Under the pieces are notes generated by a model, which did not search any database, was not told where the DNA came from, and saw only the letters and a program-made list of their open reading frames with translations. Below, one piece after another: positions 542 through 45,778 of a DNA stretch of 45,778 nucleotides. The stretch's first letter is position 1; the number at the start of each line of letters is the position of its first letter. The DNA is taken from IMG/VR virus record IMGVR_UViG_2740892271_000013. The stretch is one strand, 5' to 3'. The position numbers were made by a program, and so were the translations under genes. Source of the DNA: a virus. Its lineage: Duplodnaviria > Heunggongvirae > Uroviricota > Caudoviricetes.

Positions 542-1579
542 TTAACGCTTATCCGCCACCAGTTTGAGCGCGTGTTCCAGCACATTAATGTCTGCACCCG
601 CTTTATGGGCATTTTCACTTAAATAACGCCGCCACTGCCGCGCGCCAGGAATACCCTGGAACAAGCCCAACATATGCCGGGTAATATGGCCGAGATACGT
701 CCCCTGGCTGAGTTCACGCTCAATGTACGGATACATGGCGCGCACTACCGCCACCGGATCGGCATCGGTATCCGAGGAACCAAAGATCTCCCGGTCTACC
801 GCCGCCAGAATACCCGGATTCTGATACGCCTCGCGCCCGACCATCACGCCATCCATATGTTGCAGGTGTGCTTTGGCCTCTTCCAGCGACTTGATACCAC
901 CGTTAATCGACATTGTCAGATGCGGAAAGTCACGCTTCAGTTGATACACACGCGGATAATCGAGTGGCGGGATTTCACGGTTTTCTTTCGGGCTTAACCC
1001 CGAAAGCCAGGCTTTACGTGCGTGGATGATAAACATCTCACACTCGCCTTTGCCGGAAACGGTGTTGATGAAATCGCAGAGAAATTCATAGCTGTCCTGG
1101 TCATCGATGCCAATACGCGTTTTCACCGTCACTGGAATCGACACCACATCGCGCATCGCTTTCACGCAGTCGGCAACCAGCTGCGCATTACCCATCAGAC
1201 ACGCACCAAACATGCCGTTCTGCACCCGGTCAGACGGGCAGCCGACATTCAGGTTGATCTCATCATATCCACGCGCTTCTGCCAGCTTCGCACACTGTGC
1301 CAGCGCCGCCGGATCGCTACCGCCGAGTTGCAACGCTACCGGATGTTCTTCTTCACTGTACGCCAGGTAATCACCTTTACCGTGAATAATCGCCCCTGTG
1401 GTCACCATTTCGGTATACAGCAACGTATTGCGGGAAAGCAGACGCAAGAAATAGCGGCAATGTCTGTCCGTCCAGTCGAGCATAGGAGCAATGCTAAACC
1501 GAGAACTCCAGTAAGCGCCAGTTTTTTCAGGCATCACGCTGGTTTGATTAGTTTTCTGTGTTTCAGGATTATCGTGCAT
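542..1579 (-). CDS. dusA: tRNA-dihydrouridine(20/20a) synthase DusA
   Basis: 345-aa translation with DusA-characteristic stretches ([49 protein letters not shown]); the first ~30 codons may be supplied by the integrated element; an alternative internal start (MPEKT...) exists. Confidence 0.9.
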
Positions 1580-1613
1580 TTTTGAACATTTCAGGCTATT
1601 TTTCTCGCGTTAG

Positions 1614-1647
1614 GTTCCCGCACAGGTTCCCACGCTTTATGGGAACC
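1614..1647. promoter_or_regulatory. Recombinase core-type site candidate: GGTTCCC direct repeat plus inverted repeat GGTTCCCA-N7-TGGGAACC
   Basis: Perfect 8-bp inverted repeat with 7-bp spacer (1625-1647) and an extra GGTTCCC copy at 1614-1620, in the 88-bp dusA-int divergent intergenic region. Confidence 0.35.
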
Positions 1648-1667
1648 CGAAATAACGAGGTCGTGTA

Positions 1668-2765
1668 ATGGCGTACTATAACATAGAGAAACGACTAAAA
1701 TCCGATGGCACACCACGCTATCGCTGTAATGTGATTATCAAAGAAAAAGGTGTTATCACTTACAGGGAAAGCAAAACATTCCCTAAACATGCTCATGCCA
1801 AAACATGGGGCGCACAGAAAGTGATGGAATTAGATCTATATGGCATTCCATCATCAAATGCTGTTGACGGACTTACAGTCCGTGACTTACTACACAAATA
1901 TTTAAATGACCCAAATGCCGGAGGTAAAGCAGGCCGTACTAAAAGATATGTGCTGGAACTGCTTATGGATAGTGACATCTCCGCGATCAAACTATCTGAA
2001 CTGACAGAAAATGACGTAATTGAACATTGCAGGCTAAGAAACAACGCTGGTGCAGGCCCAGCAACAGTCAGCCACGATGTTAGTTATCTTGGCAGTGTTC
2101 TGGATGCGGCAAAACCTGTATACGGAATCAATTACACATCAAACCCGGCGAAAAGCGCTCGTCCATATCTACTTAAACTCGGTTTGATTGGTAAATCAAA
2201 CCGTCGTAATCGTAGACCAGCATCTGATGAACTGAACATGCTCATTGAAGGCCTTCAACAACGATCTACTCATAAATGCTCAAAAATTCCGTTCGTTGAT
2301 ATCCTCAAATTTTCTGTGTGGTCCTGTATGCGAATCGGAGAAGTATGCCGGTTACGATGGGAAGATCTCGACCAGGAACAAAAATCTATACTAGTAAGAG
2401 ACAGGAAAGATCCACGTAAAAAGGAAGGCAACCATATGAAAGTTGCCTTGCTTGGGGAAGCCTGGGATATCGTCCAGCGACAACCCAAAAAATCAGAATT
2501 CATTTTTCCATATAACAGCACTTCTGTTACCGCAGGATTTCAGAGGGTAAGAAGCAAATTAGGTATTAAAGATCTGAGATACCATGATTTGCGTAGAGAA
2601 GGGGCAAGTCGCTTATTTGAGGCTGGTTTTAGTATTGAGGAAGTCGCTCAGGTTACAGGGCATCGTTCATTAAACGTGCTATGGCAGGTATATACCGAAC
2701 TGTATCCGAAATCTTTACATAATCGTTTTGAAGAACTCCAAAGGAGCAGAAATAAGACCTCTTGA
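1668..2765 (+). CDS. int: Tyrosine-type site-specific integrase (dusA-targeting family candidate)
   Basis: 365 aa; C-terminal catalytic region with HDLRREGASRLFEAG and GHRSLNVLWQVYTELY (R-H-R-Y signature); GAGG ribosome-binding site 7 nt upstream; location next to dusA 5' end. Confidence 0.85.
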   Translation: MAYYNIEKRLKSDGTPRYRCNVIIKEKGVITYRESKTFPKHAHAKTWGAQKVMELDLYGIPSSNAVDGLTVRDLLHKYLNDPNAGGKAGRTKRYVLELLMDSDISAIKLSELTENDVIEHCRLRNNAGAGPATVSHDVSYLGSVLDAAKPVYGINYTSNPAKSARPYLLKLGLIGKSNRRNRRPASDELNMLIEGLQQRSTHKCSKIPFVDILKFSVWSCMRIGEVCRLRWEDLDQEQKSILVRDRKDPRKKEGNHMKVALLGEAWDIVQRQPKKSEFIFPYNSTSVTAGFQRVRSKLGIKDLRYHDLRREGASRLFEAGFSIEEVAQVTGHRSLNVLWQVYTELYPKSLHNRFEELQRSRNKTS

Positions 2766-2813
2766 CACTGTTTATCCATACAGTTAAAAATAATACTGTA
2801 TACAAATACAGTG
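2762..2813 (+). promoter_or_regulatory. SOS-regulated promoter with two tandem LexA boxes upstream of the dinI-like gene
   Basis: TTGACA at 2762-2767; LexA boxes cactgtttatccatacagtt (2766-2785) and tactgtatacaaatacagtg (2794-2813), both CTG-N10-CAG. Confidence 0.7.
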
Positions 2814-2825
2814 TAGGGGACTTTT

Positions 2826-3074
2826 ATGCGTATTGAAATCTGCATAGCCAAAGAAAAAATGACTAAAATGCCAACCGGTGCTGTGGATGCGTTAAAGGAA
2901 GAATTAACCCGACGCATCAGTAAACGTTATGACGATGTAGAAGTGATCGTAAAAGCCACCAGCAACGATGGCCTTTCTGTTACGCGCACCGCTGATAAAG
3001 ATTCAGCTAAAACTTTTGTTCAGGAGACTCTGAAAGATACCTGGGAGTCTGCTGACGAGTGGTTTGTTCATTAA
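2826..3074 (+). CDS. DinI-like DNA-damage-inducible protein (RecA modulator family)
   Basis: 82 aa [11 protein letters not shown]...[13 protein letters not shown]...[16 protein letters not shown] resembles DinI (C-terminal TWESADxWF); LexA boxes upstream. Confidence 0.8.
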
Positions 3075-3105
3075 GTTCATCATCTCTGGACACCATTCAC
3101 TTGTA

Positions 3106-3134
3106 TTGACTTTAAGATCATTAAATTGTAATAA
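3106..3134 (+). promoter_or_regulatory. Sigma-70-like promoter (TTGACT-N17-TAATAA) for the RT cassette
   Basis: -35 TTGACT 3106-3111, 17-nt spacer, -10 TAATAA 3129-3134; predicted start near 3141. Confidence 0.45.
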
Positions 3135-3140
3135 TTCAAA

Positions 3141-3296
3141 GGGATGGGGCAGGTTTTTCCTCTTGCGCATGCAAGGGCGGCTCTGATAATGAACAGTAAT
3201 ATTTTACTGTTGAGCTTATGCTCACTGATCCTGCCGGGCAGGATGTTCAACGGTTCCAATATATCCTGCCCCTTCCGCTTTTAAAAAGGATCTTTT
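3141..3296 (+). ncRNA. Structured 5' leader / candidate RT-associated non-coding RNA with repeated GGCAGG/CCTGCC motif
   Basis: GGGGCAGG (3146-3153), palindrome ATCCTGCCgGGCAGGAT (3228-3244), ATCCTGCCCC (3263-3272) and small hairpins (CAGTAA/TTACTG 3194-3209); no ORF of 60 aa or more; immediately upstream of the membrane-protein and RT genes. Confidence 0.3.
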
Positions 3297-3848
3297 ATGC
3301 ATGACAATATTTGGTTTACATATAAAGCACGTATCCAAGCGCACCATCGACTAGAATGGCTTGAAAAACACTCTCAATTTATCCTCGTTTGGTATGCTAT
3401 ATTGAGTGCGGTACTTTCAATTGTAACGTTGCGATTTCCAAAGGTTCTAGGAGATAATACAGATGTCGTTGCGGCGATACTTTCAGTGGCTCTACTGGGT
3501 ATTTCTCTGATCGTATCTAACCTAGATTTTCGTGGTCGAGCAATAGCCATGAGAAGGAATTATATTGCACTACAGCGACTCTATTTTGACATTACCACCA
3601 GTCAACAGTTATCTCTTGAACAGAAAGAAAAATATTTTAATTTGCTCAATGAGGTTGAGAATCACCGTGACATAGATGATAAAATTTCAAGGGTAACTCA
3701 AGTTGGACTTAAGACGAGGATCCCCACACAAAAAGAAAAAATAATTGTTATTTTATGGATATTACTTCGAATATTTATTACTGCCGCACTTTATATACTC
3801 CCATTAATATATCTTTGGATTGACTATGACTGCAAGCAGAATTTTTAA
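3297..3848 (+). CDS. Small membrane protein with three predicted TM helices (SLATT-like effector candidate), overlaps the RT gene
   Basis: 183 aa; hydrophobic helices FILVWYAILSAVLSIVTL, VVAAILSVALLGISLIVSNL and IIVILWILLRIFITAALYILPLIYLWI, charged helical middle; AAGGA ribosome-binding site; 29-nt overlap with RT start. Confidence 0.6.
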   Translation: MHDNIWFTYKARIQAHHRLEWLEKHSQFILVWYAILSAVLSIVTLRFPKVLGDNTDVVAAILSVALLGISLIVSNLDFRGRAIAMRRNYIALQRLYFDITTSQQLSLEQKEKYFNLLNEVENHRDIDDKISRVTQVGLKTRIPTQKEKIIVILWILLRIFITAALYILPLIYLWIDYDCKQNF

Positions 3849-5196
3849 AAAGTCATTCTCGAAAAAAAATCTTCTAAAAGTATACTCTGAAAAAATCAAA
3901 GAATCAGGAGCGATTGGCATAGATCGGATTCGCCCATCAAAACTTGATTTGACAATAAAAAATGAGATCACTTTCATTTTTGAAAAGGTTAATTCTGGCA
4001 ATTACAAATTTACAGCATATAAAGAAAAATTAATATCTAAAGGCGCTAACTCTACACCCAGACAGATTTCCATACCAACTGCTAGGGACAGAATTACTCT
4101 TAGAGCTCTCTGTGAATGCCTTACGGAAATATATCCTAAGTCCAGATTAAAACTACCACATACAGTAATTGACTCATTGAAAGAAGCATTAAACAACAGT
4201 CTATATGCTGAATATGCAAAAATAGATCTTAAAAGTTTCTATCCTTCAATTGAACATAAATTGATAATTAATGCAATAAAAAATAAAATTAGAAAAAAAG
4301 AAATTAGACAGTTAATAACATCATCATTAATCGTGCCTACTGTAAGTGGAACCACAGGAAGCAAAGGTATCCCTAATAATACCAGAGGAGTACCTCAGGG
4401 ATTAGCGATATCAAACATTTTAGCTGAAATATCACTATCTAATTTCGATGATGAAATCAATAAAATGCATGACATATGGTACATGCGATACGTTGATGAC
4501 ATTCTTATTTTAACACCAAAATATCAAGCAACAAAAATAGCTTCTCATATCATTGATAAGCTTCAATCATTAAATTTAAACCCACATCCATTAAATGAAG
4601 AGAACTCAAAATCCAAAGTAGGCAGCTTGGATGAAAGTTTCAACTTTTTGGGCTACCACATAAAAAATCGAGAATTATTGATAAAACATGAGAGCATTCT
4701 TAGATTTGAGTCATCCTTAGCAAAAATTTTTACTGCATATAGACACGCTCTACTACAAGCTAAAAATAAGCGCGATAAAGAACGAGCTGTTGCATATTGT
4801 CAGTGGAAACTAAATCTTAGAATTACGGGATGTGTGTTTGAAGGTAAACGATTGGGATGGGTATCGTACTTCTCACAAATAACGTCAACAGCTCAACTTC
4901 GAGCTGTTAATCATACGATCAATAATCTTATCCGCCGATTCGGCCTTTCATCAGAAATAAAACCAAAGTCTTTGATTAAAACTTTCTATGAACTCCGCAG
5001 GGGTAGAGCGGAGACTTTTAAATACATACCTAACTTTGACAATCTACATATATCTCAGAAACGAGAAATTGTTTCTATGTGGATAGGGAAAGAGAATGAA
5101 AAAAAACTTAGCAATAGTGAAATAGAGAGAAAATTTAAATTTAAAATTGCGAAATCAGTAAAAGAGCTTGAAGAGGACATTTCAGGGATATCATAG
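3820..5196 (+). CDS. Reverse transcriptase (retron/Abi/UG-like, not intron-type)
   Basis: 458 aa; RT motifs seen directly: KIDLKSFYPSI (motif A), GVPQGLAISNILAEI (motif B), YMRYVDDILIL (YVDD, motif C), FNFLGYHI (motif E); about 160-aa C-terminal extension of unknown function. Confidence 0.85.
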   Translation: MTMTASRIFKKSFSKKNLLKVYSEKIKESGAIGIDRIRPSKLDLTIKNEITFIFEKVNSGNYKFTAYKEKLISKGANSTPRQISIPTARDRITLRALCECLTEIYPKSRLKLPHTVIDSLKEALNNSLYAEYAKIDLKSFYPSIEHKLIINAIKNKIRKKEIRQLITSSLIVPTVSGTTGSKGIPNNTRGVPQGLAISNILAEISLSNFDDEINKMHDIWYMRYVDDILILTPKYQATKIASHIIDKLQSLNLNPHPLNEENSKSKVGSLDESFNFLGYHIKNRELLIKHESILRFESSLAKIFTAYRHALLQAKNKRDKERAVAYCQWKLNLRITGCVFEGKRLGWVSYFSQITSTAQLRAVNHTINNLIRRFGLSSEIKPKSLIKTFYELRRGRAETFKYIPNFDNLHISQKREIVSMWIGKENEKKLSNSEIERKFKFKIAKSVKELEEDISGIS

Positions 5197-5290
5197 ATAT
5201 GTAATCCATTAAATCCTTTATATATAAAGCAATAAACACACTATTTAAATTCACAAATCAGCCGCAGTATCCTGCCATGACAAGTTGCTG

Positions 5291-5792
5291 NNNNNNNNNN
5301 NNNNNNNNNNNNNNNNNNNNNNNNNNNNNNNNNNNNNNNNNNNNNNNNNNNNNNNNNNNNNNNNNNNNNNNNNNNNNNNNNNNNNNNNNNNNNNNNNNNN
5401 NNNNNNNNNNNNNNNNNNNNNNNNNNNNNNNNNNNNNNNNNNNNNNNNNNNNNNNNNNNNNNNNNNNNNNNNNNNNNNNNNNNNNNNNNNNNNNNNNNNN
5501 NNNNNNNNNNNNNNNNNNNNNNNNNNNNNNNNNNNNNNNNNNNNNNNNNNNNNNNNNNNNNNNNNNNNNNNNNNNNNNNNNNNNNNNNNNNNNNNNNNNN
5601 NNNNNNNNNNNNNNNNNNNNNNNNNNNNNNNNNNNNNNNNNNNNNNNNNNNNNNNNNNNNNNNNNNNNNNNNNNNNNNNNNNNNNNNNNNNNNNNNNNNN
5701 NNNNNNNNNNNNNNNNNNNNNNNNNNNNNNNNNNNNNNNNNNNNNNNNNNNNNNNNNNNNNNNNNNNNNNNNNNNNNNNNNNNNNNNNNNNN
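5291..5792. other. Run of N (assembly gap or masked sequence)
   Basis: 502 consecutive n characters. Confidence 1.
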
Positions 5793-6104: not shown

Positions 6105-9100
6105 TATGCAAGCCTCACAATATAGTTAAATGCGATGTTTTTGACGGTGTTTTCCGCGTTACCCGCAGCGTTAACGGTGATGGTATGTCCATGTGAACCA
6201 ATCGCAACGGAGTGCGTATGAGCACCAATACCGACAGTATGCGCGTGTGCACCTGCAGATGCTGCTGTGCCGGACAGTGAGTGGCTATGATTACCATCTG
6301 TACTGGTATTCGCTAACCACCCCGTAGACATACCTACTGAGCCTTGTACACCCCAGGTATTTTGACCTGAGCTTGTATAACCATATTGATAAGTATCTTT
6401 AAAAACACTGGGGTTAAATCGACGGCCATCTCTATGGCTGTGATTACCAGCTGCATTCGTGCTGCCACTTAAACTATGGGTATGCGCACCAGTGTTATTC
6501 GTGGATTTAGTGCCGTAATCAAACGACGATGTGGTTTTCGTCCCCAAATCCGTACTGGATGCGCTGGCGCTGTGGGTATGCGATTTAATGCCGTCCTGTT
6601 CCTGAGACAATACGGCCCGACCACTGGCAGGTTTGCCCTTAATCGTCCAGCCACGCATATCAGGGATCACACCTGACGGATAAACGGCTGCAAGTTTCGG
6701 GTAAGCAGATTTGTCAAAAGTCTGTCCCTGCATCAGGGCATAACCAGACGGAACGGTATCTGATGGCCACGGGATTGGTGCACCGACTGGGTAGCTTTCT
6801 GGTGGAAGATTTTTCGAGGTATAAACTTCTGCCCAGTCTTCCTCAAAACCATAACCGTCTCTTGAAGAACGGTAGAACAGACCACCATTTCTGTAATGCG
6901 CCTTCATCTGCAAGGTCCGGCAACTTCCGACTCCGGTATAGAAGTTAACCAGAATATAGCTGTTGCCAGAGCGGGTGACATTGTAAGCGCCTGATTCGGC
7001 ATTCCATGGAACGCCACCATCCGCATCGGCATATGTATCCGTTGCCCTTCTGGCAAAAGCAGCCACATGCGCGGCGGTTAAAGTAATATCTTTGGAACCA
7101 TCAAACTCAACACCAGAAACCAGTCTTGGCGTTTGCAGCTTTGTTGCTGTCAATGCGTTACCGTTCAGACTTGCAGACAGTTTGGTTCCAATAACCAGTT
7201 CGCCGGTTGCGTTATCAATAACAAACGGTCTTAATGTATTCCAGCCACCATAAACATCACCTTGATTGGTAAGCAGCAGGTAAGTTTTAGCGCCATCATT
7301 ACGCCATAATGCACCATACTCCCCACCTATCATTCGAATCTGATTACCACCACGCGCTACAATTTCGTCTGTGGCAAAAAGTTTTTTGCACGACAAGTTA
7401 TCGTTAACGATTAACGAATGAGACTCATAAAAACCACGCCCACTCTTAAAATCAAGGATAACGTCCGCCGCGATACATTCAGTCGCCGGATTTGTTGCCC
7501 CAAACTTATAGGTCGTATCATTAACAACGAGATCAGCACCAGGTGCGGATATTGACAGGCCATCTTCGAGAAACGCAAAAACAGGGAAAGCAGCGCCATC
7601 AACATAGAACACAGAGCGCAAATCATCGCCCTTATTACTCATCATTATTGAGTGGATGGCTCGTTCATTGTTTTGATATTGCCAGAACATTCCATAAGCA
7701 TAACGCCCCCTGTCAGTCCAGCCACCAGGCATAACAAATCCGTTAAACTCGCAGTTATTCATCGGATCGCCTGCGATTCGCGTTGCCGTGGTGATAATGA
7801 CCCTTGATGCCAGTTCGCTTACTGAGCCAGCAGAACGCATAACAACAACAGGGTAATATTTTCCAGATGTTGCACCTGCAGGAGCGTTAACCCGCACATA
7901 ACGCATACCACGCTTATCAGCAAAGTCTGTTTTACTGACCGCGTTAATGTTGTTCAGGAAGCGTCCCTTATCGGGTATATCAGCGCCGTTCTGGTCTTTC
8001 TGCAGACGTTTCTCAGCATTGTCATTGGCTGCTTTTACTGCCTTTGGCGTTGCCGCCAGCGTTTCAGACGTGCTATTAGTCGCACTACTGAGCTGTACTA
8101 TCCCCTTTTTCGTCGTGCTCGCATCCTCAAGCGCCACGGCGGATGCAATATCCTCTGCACGTTTTGCCGCTGTCTCGGCGCGCGTTGCCGCGGATTCCGC
8201 CGTACTTTTGCTCTGTGCTGCCGCCGTCGCACTGCCAGCAGCCTCTGTCGCCTTCGTGGATGCTGTCGTGGCGCTGCCCTTCGCTGCGGACGCTTGTCTG
8301 GTCGCCTCATCTTTTGAAGCAGACGCCGATGATGCCGATGACGCCGCCGAACTGGCGGACGATGCGGCAGCCGTTTTTGAGGATTCTGCGCTGGTCTCCG
8401 ACGCTTTCGCGTTCGTCTCCGATGTCTTCGCTGCGGAAGCAGACCTCGCTGCTGCACTGGCCTGTTCAGTGGCTTCGCCAGCCTTCGTTGTGGCTGTTGA
8501 AGCGGACGATGCGGCGCTTTCTGCCGATTTTCCGGCGGCGCTAGCACTGGCTGAGGCCTGCCCGGCACTTGTTGACGCTGCACTGGCAGACGACGCAGCC
8601 GCTGTTTTTGAGCCTGCTGCTGCGGAGGCACTCTGTGCTGCTGCCGTTTCAGAGGACTTAGCGTTTGTCTCAGACGTCTTTGCCGCCTTCGCGGAATTTC
8701 CTGCCGCCGTTGCCGAGGAAGCGGCATTACTGGCGCTCGAAGCTGCGCTCGTTTCTGATAATTTTGCCGCCTCTTTTGAAGCCGACGCATCTCTGGCTGA
8801 GGTGGCTGCTTCTGACGCTTTCGTGGTCGCGGTGGATGCAGAAGTGGCAGCTGATTGTTGTGACGCTGCCGCATTCGTTTCTGACGTTTTCGCCGCACCG
8901 GCACTGGTGGCCGCCGCGCTTTTTGAGGACTCTGCAGCGGCAGCACTTTTTGATGCTTCAGTGGCCTTTGCTGATGCCGTTCCTGCGCTGGAAGACGCAG
9001 ACTGAGCCGACGAAGCGGCCTGTCCGGCTGACNNNNNNNNNNNNNNNNNNNNNNNNNNNNNNNNNNNNNNNNNNNNNNNNNNNNNNNNNNNNNNNNNNNN

Positions 9101-9572
9101 NNNNNNNNNNNNNNNNNNNNNNNNNNNNNNNNNNNNNNNNNNNNNNNNNNNNNNNNNNNNNNNNNNNNNNNNNNNNNNNNNNNNNNNNNNNNNNNNNNNN
9201 NNNNNNNNNNNNNNNNNNNNNNNNNNNNNNNNNNNNNNNNNNNNNNNNNNNNNNNNNNNNNNNNNNNNNNNNNNNNNNNNNNNNNNNNNNNNNNNNNNNN
9301 NNNNNNNNNNNNNNNNNNNNNNNNNNNNNNNNNNNNNNNNNNNNNNNNNCGGCATGTGACGGCGGGAATCCTTCCACCAACAGAATAACGCTGTACTGAC
9401 CGTACTCAACGTCCATGCTGTAACGCCCGGCTTCATCCGGATTTTCTGAGGCCAGCGTGTTCACCACCACCGTGGTGCTGTTACGTTTTGCTTTCAGCTG
9501 GATTGTGCAGTTCTGTACCGGTTTTCCTGTGCCGTCTTTCAGTACACCTGAAATCTTTACTGCCATATTCAC
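6104..9572 (-). CDS. stf: Side tail fibre protein (lambda Stf / Rac StfR-like), interrupted by an N run
   Basis: N-terminus [39 protein letters not shown], long Ala/Ser/Thr-rich shaft repeats, His-rich C-terminal region ending [31 protein letters not shown]; frame break across 9032-9349 is a gap artefact. Confidence 0.85.
9032..9349. other. Run of N (assembly gap or masked sequence) inside stf
   Basis: 318 consecutive n characters. Confidence 1.
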
Positions 9573-15068: not shown

Positions 15069-15806
15069 TTACTGCGAAAGTTTGTTAATGGAAAGGAAGC
15101 CGCCAAAGTTGCCGACGTTATTGCGAAACTTACAGCCGCTCAGGCATTTGCTGCATTTATCCTTCGTGATATCGGACGTCGGCTGATCATATTCATCCGC
15201 GACCGCCGGACCGTGATAACCGCACTCATCGCCGCGATAGGTCCAGGTGCAGGTGTTGGCCAGCATGATACGTCCCGGAAAAACGGCACCGTCCGTTTCC
15301 GTCGGCGTGGACAGTACAAAGGAGGCACTGACCGCGCTCAGTTCGCTGCACTGCTCGATGCGCCAGCGGCTGATCACCTCCTGCTCCGGATCGGCGTCAC
15401 TGTTTCCGTTGACGAAGTTCACCGCATCCAGAAAACGGGCGTAAACCTTACGCCGGACCACCGTTCCGCCGACCAGACTCTGCAGATCTTCCGCCATCCC
15501 GGTGACCATGCCGTGCAGGTTAGAAACCGTCAGTGTCGGACGGGCAGCACTGCCCTTGCCGTTCAGTTCAANNNNNNNNNNNNNNNNNNNNNNNNNNNNN
15601 NNNNNNNNNNATCCCGTCCCCTGAATGGGATACGCCTGATACTGTCGCCCCTGCCAGGTGACCGGCTCACCTTTTTCGTTCTGCTCATTACAGAAAAAAT
15701 AACGTTCTCCACCGACCTCTGTCAGATCGATTTCCCAGAGCACCACCTGGGCTGACTGAGTGAGGCGTGTCGTCTCATGATGTGTTTCCTGTGGAATATC
15801 CTGCAT
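15069..15806 (-). CDS. L: Minor tail protein L
   Basis: 245 aa resembling lambda gpL including C-terminal Cys cluster (CSKCLSGCKF); contains a 39-nt N run. Confidence 0.8.
   Translation of the reverse strand: MQDIPQETHHETTRLTQSAQVVLWEIDLTEVGGERYFFCNEQNEKGEPVTWQGRQYQAYPIQGTGXXXXXXXXXXXXXXELNGKGSAARPTLTVSNLHGMVTGMAEDLQSLVGGTVVRRKVYARFLDAVNFVNGNSDADPEQEVISRWRIEQCSELSAVSASFVLSTPTETDGAVFPGRIMLANTCTWTYRGDECGYHGPAVADEYDQPTSDITKDKCSKCLSGCKFRNNVGNFGGFLSINKLSQ
15572..15610. other. Run of N inside gene L
   Basis: 39 consecutive n characters. Confidence 1.
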
Positions 15807-30632: not shown

Positions 30633-30944
30633 NNNNNNNNNNNNNNNNNNNNNNNNNNNNNNNNNNNNNNNNNNNNNNNNNNNNNNNNNNNNNNNNNNNN
30701 NNNNNNNNNNNNNNNNNNNNNNNNNNNNNNNNNNNNNNNNNNNNNNNNNNNNNNNNNNNNNNNNNNNNNNNNNNNNNNNNNNNNNNNNNNNNNNNNNNNN
30801 NNNNNNNNNNNNNNNNNNNNNNNNNNNNNNNNNNNNNNNNNNNNNNNNNNNNNNNNNNNNNNNNNNNNNNNNNNNNNNNNNNNNNNNNNNNNNNNNNNNN
30901 NNNNNNNNNNNNNNNNNNNNNNNNNNNNNNNNNNNNNNNNNNNN
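30633..30944. other. Run of N inside the holin region
   Basis: 312 consecutive n characters. Confidence 1.
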
Positions 30945-37373: not shown

Positions 37374-37867
37374 TAAGCCCCCACGTAATTCCCTGACAGA
37401 TACCACTCTTCACCCGATGCAGCGCGCTTGCTGCTTTTCCGTAAGCACCGCTCACGACGCGCCAGAAAATTGTTTCGTTCTGGCTGGGAGTGGCTTTCAC
37501 GGAATGCCGCCATCCACACCGTTGCAGCACGACGGTATAAGCCCCTGGACTCCAGTTCTTCCGCCTGGCGGGTCAGGCACAAAATCACCCGGGGATCGTT
37601 AGTGCCGACATAGAAATTGCGCACAGGTCTGGTTTCACGAACTGGTTGTGGTTCCGGCTCCTGCGCTCTCTCAGTCAGGCGTGGGAAATGTCTGCGTGTA
37701 TCTCCTTCATAACGGTGAGCCACACGCCCACTCTGACGTAACTTGCTTGCTGACTGCAGAACGCGCTGCCGTGAGTAACCTGCAAAAGCATCCGCAATGT
37801 CTCCGGAAGTACACCCCGGATGGGCTTCAATGAATTTCTGAACTTCATTCAAAAGACTCATGATCAC
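37373..37867 (-). CDS. Hypothetical protein, possible winged-helix regulator
   Basis: 164-aa ORF translationally coupled on both sides; Arg-rich C-terminal half; family not recognised. Confidence 0.4.
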   Translation of the reverse strand: MIMSLLNEVQKFIEAHPGCTSGDIADAFAGYSRQRVLQSASKLRQSGRVAHRYEGDTRRHFPRLTERAQEPEPQPVRETRPVRNFYVGTNDPRVILCLTRQAEELESRGLYRRAATVWMAAFRESHSQPERNNFLARRERCLRKSSKRAASGEEWYLSGNYVGA

Positions 37868-38682
37868 CCCCTGAATCCTGCCGGGATCTGGCTGTAGTCC
37901 ACGTTGTCGTAACTGGCTTTGAAGTACGGGTCCTCGCGTCTGGCTGCAGATACCGCAGGAACTTCCCAGAATTCTTCGAAATGACGATCCGGACCAAAGA
38001 ACGTGACAGCCTGTTTCACAAATTGTGTGCCGCTGTTACCCATCGCAGATACCCATCCCGCGTAGCGTTTCACACCTTCCAGCATGGTTTCGGGGTTTAC
38101 TCCCTCATTCAAACGGGCTTTCCAGGCTTTGAAGGCTGCAGATTTTGAATTGCCACCAGCACGTTTGGGATATGCCAGCCATGCCTGCTCAAACTCCGGA
38201 GAGTATTCCGGTCGGTTTGAACGAACTCGCACGGACTCATCAACTGATGCACCAACAGCTATTGGTTCATTGACTGGTTCTTTGACTGGTTCAAAAGAGT
38301 GACTGGTTCTGGGTGAATCTCCTGCACTACCCCCTGGTGCAACTCCTGCACTACCTGGTGAATTTGCTGCACCAGATAGTGAATTATTTGCACTACCCCC
38401 TAGTGAATCTCCTGCACCATCCAGATGAAGGAGATAGATATTACTTGAGTTACCTTTTTCACCTTTCCGGGTGACTTTTTTTACCAGCCCGGACTCACAA
38501 AGGGCCGCAATATGATTCATCACAGAACGTTTGCTAATTTCGCACTGGTCAGCAATATGCTGGTAGCTGGGCCAGCACTCACCCTGATCGCTGGCATTAT
38601 CAGCCAGCTTGATCAGAACCAGTTTTCGCAATGGATTACCCACTCGAATTTTCATCGCTTTAACCATCAGCTCCATACTCAT
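37864..38682 (-). CDS. Replication initiation / replisome organiser protein (O-like)
   Basis: 272 aa; N-terminal helix-turn-helix (WPSYQHIADQCEISKRSVMNHIAALCESGLV), Gly/Ser-rich linker encoded by DNA iterons, C-terminal domain. Confidence 0.65.
   Translation of the reverse strand: MSMELMVKAMKIRVGNPLRKLVLIKLADNASDQGECWPSYQHIADQCEISKRSVMNHIAALCESGLVKKVTRKGEKGNSSNIYLLHLDGAGDSLGGSANNSLSGAANSPGSAGVAPGGSAGDSPRTSHSFEPVKEPVNEPIAVGASVDESVRVRSNRPEYSPEFEQAWLAYPKRAGGNSKSAAFKAWKARLNEGVNPETMLEGVKRYAGWVSAMGNSGTQFVKQAVTFFGPDRHFEEFWEVPAVSAARREDPYFKASYDNVDYSQIPAGFRG
38261..38422. repeat. Candidate origin of replication iterons inside the O-like gene
   Basis: Three copies of TGACTGGTTC (38271, 38283, 38300) and five tandem 21-24-bp repeats of type GTGAATnTnCTGCACnACC (38313-38422). 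Confidence 0.5.
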
Positions 38683-44247: not shown

Positions 44248-44529
44248 ATGAATACCTTGTTTTTACTGATGGCTGAATTCAATACCCCAAACATTGAACT
44301 CTCAGCAGTTAGTCAAAAATACTTTGGTATGAGTCCAGCCACAGCAGAAGCAAAAGCAAACGCTTGTAAGTTGCCTGTACCTACATATCGCATCGGTACA
44401 TCACAAAAAGCAAAACGTTGCATCAATATTCAGGATCTTGCGGAATACATAGACAAAAGACGAGAAGAAGGACGTATCGAGTGGGAACAGGTCAGAACAG
44501 GCAAACAGAAGGGCAAAGAACATCACTAA
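44248..44529 (+). CDS. Small DNA-binding protein, PrtN/excisionase-like candidate
   Basis: 93 aa with GGAG ribosome-binding site; basic C-terminus; weak resemblance to excisionase/PrtN-type winged-helix proteins. Confidence 0.4.
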   Translation: MNTLFLLMAEFNTPNIELSAVSQKYFGMSPATAEAKANACKLPVPTYRIGTSQKAKRCINIQDLAEYIDKRREEGRIEWEQVRTGKQKGKEHH

Positions 44530-44789: not shown

Positions 44790-45209
44790 TTACTCATCAT
44801 CAATAGATGATACGCAATATTTATTTTTAAATTTAAGGTTCTTTGGCGTAACTTCATCAGATATATCAAAACCGTCCAGAATTCTATTGAATGTAGCTTC
44901 TGGCATATCATCATGAACGGAAATCTCACCCGATCGCTGCTTTCTAACCATGTTATCCACTCGCCAAATTATAGCTTCAGCGTAAACAACATAACTTGGA
45001 TGCTTGATAAAGCGATGATCACCAGAATTCAAGACGCAAGACGGATCGTGGGGGACACCATCCTTGATACTAGAAATATTAACAACTAAAACACAATAAC
45101 AATCGTTAACGGGGTAATAAACAGGATCATTACAAATCACATGAAGATGATTGCATGGCCCAGTTGGGGCAAGCACAGTTCCTTTCCTGTATGGCTGATA
45201 ATCCGTCAT
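44790..45209 (-). CDS. Hypothetical protein, candidate toxin partner of the Panacea-like gene
   Basis: 139-aa ORF whose ATG overlaps the upstream stop (ATGA); Cys/His-containing, no recognised family. Confidence 0.5.
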   Translation of the reverse strand: MTDYQPYRKGTVLAPTGPCNHLHVICNDPVYYPVNDCYCVLVVNISSIKDGVPHDPSCVLNSGDHRFIKHPSYVVYAEAIIWRVDNMVRKQRSGEISVHDDMPEATFNRILDGFDISDEVTPKNLKFKNKYCVSSIDDE

Positions 45210-45778
45210 GATAATTGCAAAGAAAATTCCTTAAGTTTCTGAGATTCTTCCATTTTGCCAATTATACGATTAGCCTCATCCTCGCTTTTACCCTCACTGA
45301 TCAGCATTTCTTTCAGGTCTATAGGCTTACGAGAATTGCCAGGATTGTGCCACTCTGGACAAACGCTTTCTAAATGCGTCATGTTTGCGAGATCAAATCG
45401 GTTCATATGCCCATACAGAGAATAGATTTCATCTAAAATCCGGATATCTGCACGGCTCAACTCATCAAAGACCTCGTCTGCATCCATTTCCCTCGGATCT
45501 GAACGCAACAACACATCATGCCCGTTCGTCTCTATCAGGTTGTACCAGTAGTCACCAATACCTTCAGCCTTACCACGAATCAAGTTCAGCGTATTCGACA
45601 TGACTGGACCAAATTTCATAGAGTAAAGGCTATCTTCGCCGATCATCCTGCCATGCTTCAAAATCGACTTGCGGTTAGACAGATAGAGCAGCTTCATCAA
45701 TTTCAGATATGCCATGCGCCCACCTCGCTTAAGAAGTAGGTATGCAGCCATTTGAGCTACTTTTTCTTCGCAAAACAT
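45206..45778 (-). CDS. Panacea-domain (DUF4065, SocA/GepA-like) antitoxin candidate; may be 5'-truncated by the window edge
   Basis: 190 aa; N-terminal pattern AYLKLMKLLYLSNRKSILKHGRMIGEDSLYSMKFGPVMSNTL fits the Panacea signature (L-KL-KLLYL ... GPV); ORF reaches the last base of the window. Confidence 0.55.
   Translation of the reverse strand: MFCEEKVAQMAAYLLLKRGGRMAYLKLMKLLYLSNRKSILKHGRMIGEDSLYSMKFGPVMSNTLNLIRGKAEGIGDYWYNLIETNGHDVLLRSDPREMDADEVFDELSRADIRILDEIYSLYGHMNRFDLANMTHLESVCPEWHNPGNSRKPIDLKEMLISEGKSEDEANRIIGKMEESQKLKEFSLQLS

Follow-up and report, generated by a model that had tools for sequence, protein, structure and literature searches.

Repeats between int and dusA as probable arm-type integrase sites in the attL of an mEp460-like prophage

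What is the function of the short repeats that lie between a prophage integrase gene and the bacterial gene into which the prophage has inserted? The locus in question is contained in IMG/VR virus record IMGVR_UViG_2740892271_000013, and the whole stretch of 45,778 nucleotides is referred to here as the window. The window opens in the E. coli chromosome with pspG and then dusA (542–1579, minus strand), followed by int (1668–2765, plus strand). The two genes are divergent, with 88 bp (1580–1667) between their start codons. This arrangement had been described in an earlier note on the DNA, along with the lack of a nearby tRNA, and is seen in the open reading frames and in an ARAGORN scan, which found no tRNA or tmRNA across the entire window. 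Our analysis indicates that the GGTTCCC copies in this spacer are probably arm-type integrase (Int) sites, P'1–P'3, within the attL of an mEp460-like dusA prophage.

GGTTCCC occurs three times in the 45,778 bases, counting both strands, and all three occurrences lie inside 35 bp (1613–1647). Two of them are the arms of a perfect inverted repeat, GGTTCCCA (1625–1632) and TGGGAACC (1640–1647), separated by the N7 sequence CGCTTTA. The third copy reads GGTTCCCG (1613–1620). All of these elements had been picked out previously and are present as described. As proposed arm-type Int sites they become P'1 (GGTTCCCG, 1613–1620, plus strand), P'2 (GGTTCCCA, 1625–1632, plus strand), which begins 12 bp after the start of P'1, and P'3 (1640–1647), which is inverted, so lies on the minus strand and reads TGGGAACC on the plus strand, and which ends 20 bp 5' of the int ATG. 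Shuffling the 88-bp spacer gave a 7-mer present at least three times in 0.6% of shuffles and a perfect 8-bp inverted repeat in 0.7%. The corresponding figures for real 88-nt tiles of the window (n=1005) were 2% and 3.4%, and a single tile, starting at 1585, combined both features. Judged by itself the pattern is only moderately unusual; it is the comparison with related loci, described below, that makes the repeats clearly non-random.

We located the boundary between host and phage DNA by alignment with dusA of prophage-free K-12 (L001). The window is identical to K-12 at 116 of 116 positions over 1368–1483. From 1484 to the dusA start codon identity falls to 78/96 (81%), and beyond the start codon the two sequences are unrelated (20/85). 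The encoded proteins differ at 10 amino acids, all within residues 3–30. The chimeric dusA nonetheless retains an intact reading frame of 345 codons (542–1579, minus strand; Pfam Dus, E 8e-105), host-derived from about codon 33 on and phage-derived in codons 1–32. These first 32 codons (1484–1579, minus strand) form the phage-supplied replacement dusA 5' end, an assignment based on the K-12 alignment and on free phage mEp460, where the same segment adjoins int. The view that a dedicated, DusA-associated integrase placed the prophage in the 5' end of dusA, and that the element brings its own replacement for that end, is upheld by these comparisons: identity with K-12 stops at 1483, and the dusA 5' end does not match the prophage-free sequence through codon 1. 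The arrangement is common. When 1200–2000 was searched by megablast in 5,426 complete E. coli genomes, all of them matched over the dusA part and only 740 over the int part as well, and int divergent from the dusA 5' end is annotated in 740 E. coli genomes.

The crossover itself is defined by a three-way alignment of attL from the window (TCCAG-TCGAGCAT-AGGAGC), attB from K-12 (TCCAG-TCGAGCAT-TGGTGC) and attR (TCCTA-TCGAGCAT-TGGTGC). The att repeats read TCCAGTCGAGCATAGGAGC for attL in the window, TCCTATCGAGCATTGGTGC for attR in CDF6, DEC4E and GPEC620, and TCCAGTCGAGCATTGGTGC for attB in K-12. The crossover must lie within 1476–1483 because the 8-bp TCGAGCAT found there is the sole segment common to attL, attB and attR; attP has TCGAGCAT too. 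The overlap, TCGAGCA (1476–1482, plus strand), falls in dusA codons 33–35, about 135–170 bp from the GGTTCCC repeats. It is supported by the three-way alignment, by the attP of mEp460 and by the same core having been reported for phage 1720a-02 (PMC6328086). Geometry suggests that it is flanked by two core-type half-sites: a host-side half-site B, TCCAG (1471–1475, plus strand), which pairs with TAGGA across the 7-bp overlap, and a phage-side half-site C', TAGGA (1483–1487, plus strand), which forms an inverted repeat with TCCTA in attP. In mEp460, whose int region is 97.6% identical to that of the window, attP corresponds to the predicted left part of attR joined to the right part of attL, and its core is a perfect inverted repeat, TCCTA-TCGAGCA-TAGGA.

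A direct-repeat search inside the window found no attR, which comparison with CDF6 places outside it. Several genomes, CDF6 among them, match the final 1,979 bases of the window at 100% identity, and CDF6 carries a 105-bp orphan dusA 5' fragment about 255 bp past the point at which the window ends. The left junction of CDF6 is that of the window (0 mismatches over 966–5200); with its matching attR, the CDF6 element measures 44,430 bp. The comparison with an uninterrupted dusA that the earlier note had proposed accordingly locates the crossover at 1476–1482 and the second att copy outside the window. Judged from these alignments, 1471–2765 is the attL (B-O-C' plus the P' arm) of a mEp460-like lambdoid prophage of about 44.5 kb in dusA; sequence comparison establishes the junction, the position of the crossover and the replacement 5' end. 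The same integrase module can head other elements. Strain AR434 (NZ_CP029122.1, around 4556968) is 100% identical to window positions 1200–2000, and ordinary chromosome (lamB, malK) is back about 36 kb downstream, the element there being much shorter and different.

The junctions also bear on what the palindrome is. With its 8-bp inverted arms around a 7-bp spacer, GGTTCCCA-N7-TGGGAACC resembles the core of a tyrosine-recombinase site, and the earlier note had raised the option that it is the att core. The switch from host to phage sequence in the attL, attB and attR alignment is at 1476–1483, however, and not at 1625–1647, and the attP of mEp460 agrees. In the free phage the palindrome lies inside attP, to the phage side of each junction, and a true core of like geometry (TCCTA-N7-TAGGA) sits at the crossover. 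Published junction sequencing likewise agrees with the core at 1476–1482 (PMC6328086). The junction alignments rule out the palindrome as the primary crossover site, and we regard any core-type or secondary attachment site there, with strand exchange, as scarcely conceivable.

If the repeats are arm-type sites, do they occur on the other arm of attP? The P arm of mEp460 attP carries GGTTCCCA at −61 and GGCTCCCA at −50 from the overlap, spaced as GGTTCCCA-ata-GGCTCCCA and in the same orientation as P'1 and P'2. On the P' arm, between +137 and +171, lie GGTTCCCG, GGTTCCCA and an inverted GGTTCCCA, which brings the total to five motif copies, two on P and three on P'. The P-arm copies, P1 and P2, span 43–61 bp from the core, and both are present at attR in CDF6, DEC4E and GPEC620. 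In the prophage they would lie about 195–212 bp past the window end. A query taken from the P arm matched 653 E. coli genomes, and many of the matches start at query position 84, the first base of P1. Indeed, when four contexts with three unrelated neighbouring cargos were aligned, similarity ran from GGTTCCCA (P1) through to the core. The outermost repeat, P1, is the edge of the conserved attP because homology across unrelated cargos starts there. The edge was judged on the P1 side, int following directly on the other, and the distance from P1 to P'3 is about 230 bp.

The same organization recurs with different motifs. Yersinia phage YeP2, whose Int is 69% identical, keeps the core TCGAGCA and the five-copy layout (a direct pair on one arm; a direct pair and an inverted copy on the arm next to int), but all five copies (5/5) read GCACCCC. 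Four further complete phage records were checked for the motif over their whole genomes. Both arms carry GTCTCCC in Salinivibrio SMHB1, GTGCCCC in Shewanella M16-3 and TAGTACG in a Vibrio tectivirus-like element; in Klebsiella Kp4887-1 the P' arm has GCACCCC and the P arm GGACCCCA and GAACCCCA. Both attP arms of mEp460 and of five further phages thus carry a repeated motif that differs from the core, and the exact motif is nearly absent from the remainder of the comparison genomes. The two-arm site layout and the change of motif across relatives are, like the junction, established at the level of sequence.

We extended the comparison to the int side of 80 loci (Int 52–99% identical) from species-representative genomes, drawn from 338 relatives; 78 of the 80 fetched loci were analysable, giving 79 with the window. 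A perfect (8/8) tandem direct repeat is present in the 80 nt 5' of int in 46 of the 79 loci, against 0.4% of shuffles, and a repeat matching at 7/8 or better in 73 (shuffles, about 10%). Three control regions of the same loci contain perfect repeats in 0–4%. The tandem copies recur with a period of 12 bp in 49 loci and of 11 bp in 18. In 23 of the 79 the repeat is accompanied by a third, inverted copy with 7/8 or more positions matching, compared with 0.5% of shuffles. The loci fall into at least 10 motif classes. Copies inside one element share their motif, and the inverted copy, where there is one, usually has the same motif, though not always perfectly.

Variation among close relatives indicates which feature of the palindrome is maintained. 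In L012 and L073, P'2 is GGCTCCCA and P'3 reads GGTCCCCA, so that P'2 and P'3 are not complementary to each other. This argues for a degenerate protein site, GGYYCCCA, over a required hairpin. In L010 (1420–1500; Escherichia sp. MOD1-EC7003), with Int 99% identical, P'2 (GGTCCCCA) and P'3 (TGGGGACC) share one change while P'1 stays GGTTCCCG. Taken with GGCTCCCA on the P arm, these P'2 and P'3 changes show that positions 3 and 4 of the site accept either pyrimidine.

Alternatively, the palindrome could form an RNA hairpin in the leader of int, or a cruciform in the DNA, that controls int translation or transcription, the other copies being incidental. Folding 1606–1660 gives a stem of 8 bp closed by a loop of 7 nt (−9.4 kcal/mol; z = −1.95; 9 of 200 shuffles were as good), and the stem ends 9 nt before a GAGG Shine-Dalgarno sequence. 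But such a structure leaves the direct copy P'1 and the two P-arm copies unexplained; about 70% of relatives lack the inverted copy and keep the tandem repeat; the arms are not complementary in L012 and L073; and an Rfam search of 1380–5400 returned no family match, only chance microRNA matches. Given the direct and P-arm copies and the non-complementary arms in some relatives, we rejected the hairpin as the main explanation and consider it very improbable.

We then asked which protein might bind the repeats. Int (1668–2765, plus strand) is a DusA-associated tyrosine integrase of 365 amino acids in which Pfam detects the catalytic domain only (PF00589, E 8e-21, residues 187–346). R222, H306, R309, H332 and Y342 are invariant or nearly so in alignments of 5 and of 44 relatives. 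An AlphaFold model built from the 44 relatives (mean predicted local distance difference test score (pLDDT) 85.7) consists of an N-terminal unit, a linker of lower confidence, and core-binding and catalytic domains, with predicted boundaries at residues 1–58 (1668–1841), about 71–171 and 186–365, respectively. The N-terminal unit, modelled separately with a pLDDT of 92.6, is predicted to comprise three strands (residues 2–10, 16–26 and 29–38) followed by a helix (41–58). A strand-strand-strand-helix topology is typical of the arm-binding domains of lambda and Tn916 and of AP2 domains, and the full-length model matches the integrase folds of Tn1549 and of lambda, the latter over 365 columns. 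Searches with the N-terminal domain by itself gave nothing significant in Foldseek and non-significant or non-specific matches in Pfam (up to E 10) and in a PDB sequence search. In hhalign its probability of relationship to the lambda and Tn916 N-domain sequences was about 1%.

Residues of this domain track the motif. Among the 56 loci of clear class, motif class is predicted best by two columns of the Int alignment, I23 on strand 2 and I30 on strand 3, and the N-terminal domain holds 12 of the top 25 predictor columns while contributing 58 of the 350 scored. Pairings are apparent by eye: G-K-Y with GCACCCC, G-K-H with GTACACC, G-K-R with GGACACC and G-V-I-T with GGTTCCC. Moreover, L008 and L067 share both the motif and the N-domain residues of YeP2, although their middle domains are only 33–43% identical. 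This tracking counts for the N-terminal domain as the reader of the motif, as supportive rather than decisive evidence. We infer that Int, by way of this domain, is the protein that binds the sites, and any regulatory effect of such binding would be a further inference.

The alternative reader is RdfN, or a dedicated repressor, for which the repeats would be an operator of the divergent int and dusA promoters or an excision-factor array. A PrtN-family gene (44248–44529, plus strand; Pfam PF11112, E 3e-23) encodes, on the side of attP opposite int, a homologue of RdfN, the recombination directionality factor of dusA-specific elements; RdfN, itself PrtN-like, drives excision of a Vibrio dusA element (PMC8409611). 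An RdfN-family gene is present in the window and in 6/6 comparison phages and could co-evolve with the motif. The position of the repeats also suits an operator: they start 55 bp and end 21 bp 5' of the int ATG, and no other spacer offers room for the int and dusA promoters, the P'2/P'3 palindrome is typical of dimeric regulators, and a Vibrio member of the family has an int promoter active in this spacer (PMC8409611). Against this, copies occur on both attP arms and P1 marks the conserved attP edge, and RdfN identity does not follow the motif: YeP2 and Kp4887-1 RdfN are 55% identical and the motif is shared, YeP2 and the window are 57% identical and the motifs differ, and M16-3 and the Vibrio element are 68% identical with unrelated motifs. 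That lack of correspondence is weak evidence against RdfN as the reader. In lambda, P2 and L5, excision-factor sites are usually clustered on one arm beside the core, which also counts against an RdfN array. The distribution of the motif counts against this reading too, since in the window it is restricted to 1613–1647 and is not near the cI/cro region. Binding by RdfN would in addition leave the Int N-terminal domain, with strand residues that track the motif, without explanation. We consider binding by RdfN or a repressor unlikely. An int operator, which the earlier note had offered as its other option, is possible as a secondary role of the repeats; the evidence points to arm-type binding, which that note had not considered, as the primary one.

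Several observations nonetheless weigh against arm-type binding by Int. Shared ancestry confounds the way in which motif and protein go together. Every comparison element has an RdfN homologue as well, and co-occurrence cannot separate Int from RdfN. The inverted third copy is found in only about 30% of relatives. Finally, as regards autoregulation, a scan of 1380–2900 found no sigma-70-like promoter in the int–dusA spacer.

How would arm-type sites work at this locus? The C-terminal domains of Int would bind the core half-sites around TCGAGCA while its small N-terminal domain contacts the five arm sites, so that the arms fold back onto the core in the manner of lambda Int. DNA bending would help to assemble the recombination complex, as would RdfN for excision, which would additionally require it. 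Strand exchange in TCGAGCA joined attP to dusA codons 33–35, everything rightward being phage DNA, and the look-alike of dusA codons 1–32 at the start of the phage DNA keeps dusA open. After integration the P' arm, carrying three sites and the dusA 5' copy, adjoins int and the body of dusA as attL, and the P arm, with two sites, lies at attR beside the orphan dusA 5' end. Since P'1–P'3 fill the stretch that starts 55 bp and ends 21 bp 5' of int, Int bound to them would probably damp its own expression, and perhaps also that of the chimeric dusA.

A broader proposal, which we offer tentatively and which may well prove wrong, is that DusA-type integrases are two-handed recombinases in the style of lambda, whose N-terminal domain has diversified into at least 10 arm specificities while the core stayed fixed. 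Residues on strands 2 and 3 (about 21–23 and 29–31) would set the specificity, and Int would repress int and the rebuilt dusA through P'2/P'3. Were this so, different elements competing for one dusA site would be kept from cross-reacting, and the arm sites would constitute a readable recognition code.

Much of this system is already published, namely the prophage, its target, the core, the replacement 5' end and the excision factor. Farrugia et al. (2015) described DusA-associated integrases and dusA-specific elements as a family, which fits this junction, and identified the shufflon recombinase Rci as the closest characterised relative of these integrases (PMC4482086). In the Vibrio member studied by Durand et al., dusA receives both its new promoter and its new N-terminus from the element (PMC8409611). 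The Shiga-toxin phage 1720a-02, which is 96.7% identical, inserts 100 bp into dusA and encodes a dusA 5' end; a seven-base core, the same as here, is common to its attL, attR, attB and attP, and the phage excises as a circle that restores dusA in an Int-dependent manner, no attP being formed without int (PMC6328086). The primers used there for quantitative PCR of attP sit on the P-arm and P'-arm repeats, without comment (PMC6328086). The window resembles mEp460 and 1720a-02 in its integrase (97–99% identical), in int being divergent from dusA, in the 7-bp core about 100 bp into dusA, in the new 5' end and in the PrtN/RdfN factor, and there is no difference in the junction itself. mEp460 differs in lacking the UG17 reverse transcriptase and SLATT cargo that this prophage has at the corresponding position.

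Arm-type sites for DusA-associated integrases, by contrast, seem not to have been described before. We found no description of them in the openly searchable literature, subscription literature lying outside the search; the term 'arm-type' is absent from PMC4482086 and 'arm' from PMC8409611. DusA-type integrases have so far been described as Rci-like and defined by a 21-bp core. The likeness to Rci lies in a related catalytic domain with the R-H-R-H-Y residues, whereas DusA-type integrases differ in having an extra N-terminal domain and a two-armed attP. Rci inverts shufflon segments and is not known to rely on sites of the arm type.

The closest parallel in layout is lambda attP as worked out by the Landy laboratory, with arm-type P1 and P2 on the P arm and P'1–P'3 on the int-proximal P' arm. 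Both systems place two sites on P and three on P', and they share an arm motif unrelated to the core, a three-domain integrase (predicted here) with a small N-terminal sheet and helix, and a separate excision factor. They differ in that P'3 is inverted here and the sites stand directly before int. The P' sites are also 134–168 bp from the core because the dusA 5' mimic of about 100 bp lies between. Sequence homology between the N-terminal domains is undetectable by hhalign, and the catalytic domain here is classed with Rci and not with lambda Int; the mEp460 annotation cites cd00796. Phage P4 provides a second parallel: its Int represses itself by binding attP repeats that overlap its own promoter. 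The repeats here are likewise immediately upstream of int, so this recombinase could repress its own gene, an analogy that serves as a lead only.

The junction is itself routine, a known module that about 14% of complete E. coli genomes share with several Shiga-toxin phages, and the arm-site map adds a modest detail to a system already known. What is new is a full attP map with five candidate Int arm sites, in a layout that is family-wide with motifs that are lineage-specific; Int might also control how the rebuilt dusA is expressed. Confirmation of binding would set exact prophage boundaries, explain the conservation of the int–dusA spacer and predict which dusA-targeting elements cross-mobilise or interfere. 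Orthogonal pairs of integrase and arm sites that share one chromosomal target would also be useful for integration vectors.

Many close relatives in the survey have no dusA upstream but keep the tandem GCACCCC before int (L036, L037, L040–L048, L059, L061, L067, L082 and L086). Relatives of this kind, with Int 52–64% identical, come from Xenorhabdus, Serratia, Providencia, Raoultella, Buttiauxella, Enterobacter and Atlantibacter, and some Xenorhabdus genomes contain two such integrases. Presumably their targets are other genes and their arm-site design is the same. Many marine relatives (Vibrio, Shewanella, Colwellia and Photobacterium; L006–L009, L053, L066, L070–L071, L074, L078–L080, L085 and L087) share a conserved block, (G)TAGGAC(G/A)A, 10–25 nt before the int ATG and separate from the repeats, which could serve in ribosome binding or be a further site for a protein.

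Beyond int, the remaining features of the window concern cargo and replication. A DinI-like gene (2826–3074; Pfam DinI, E 1e-19) directly follows int, as it does in mEp460. It is preceded by a promoter-like TTGACA-18-AAAAAT (2762–2791) and a LexA-box-like TACTGTATACAAATACAGTG (2794–2813), a sequence arrangement that suggests SOS control of the gene at the prophage end. Between this gene and the tail-fibre genes lies a defence-type pair, for which mEp460 has no insert at that place: a SLATT_5 gene for a two-transmembrane protein (3297–3848; PADLOC RTasSLATT, E 1.5e-56) and an overlapping reverse transcriptase gene (3820–5196; PADLOC RT_UG17, E 1e-158). The 220-bp leader of the pair (3075–3296) contains no Rfam RNA. 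At the other end of the prophage, the interval from the RdfN homologue to the expected attR (44790–45778) is occupied by reverse-oriented cargo genes, among them a Panacea-domain (SocA-like antitoxin) gene (45206–45778). Neither this gene nor its 139-amino-acid neighbour has a PADLOC match. In other E. coli prophages that share this attP the position holds different genes, such as one for a YafO-family toxin in GPEC620 (L091), and the slot beside the P arm looks like a cargo hotspot. Runs of N at 5291–5792, 9033–9349, 15572–15610 and 30633–30944 mask tail-fibre and other genes, and open reading frames across them are unreliable. Finally, three iteron-like copies of a unit of about 39 nt, GTGAATCTCCTGCACTACCCCCTGGTGCAACTCCTGCAC, lie at 38313–38417 inside an open reading frame (37864–38682) whose counterpart in CDF6 is annotated as helix-turn-helix domain-containing, and these repeats may be a phage replication origin.

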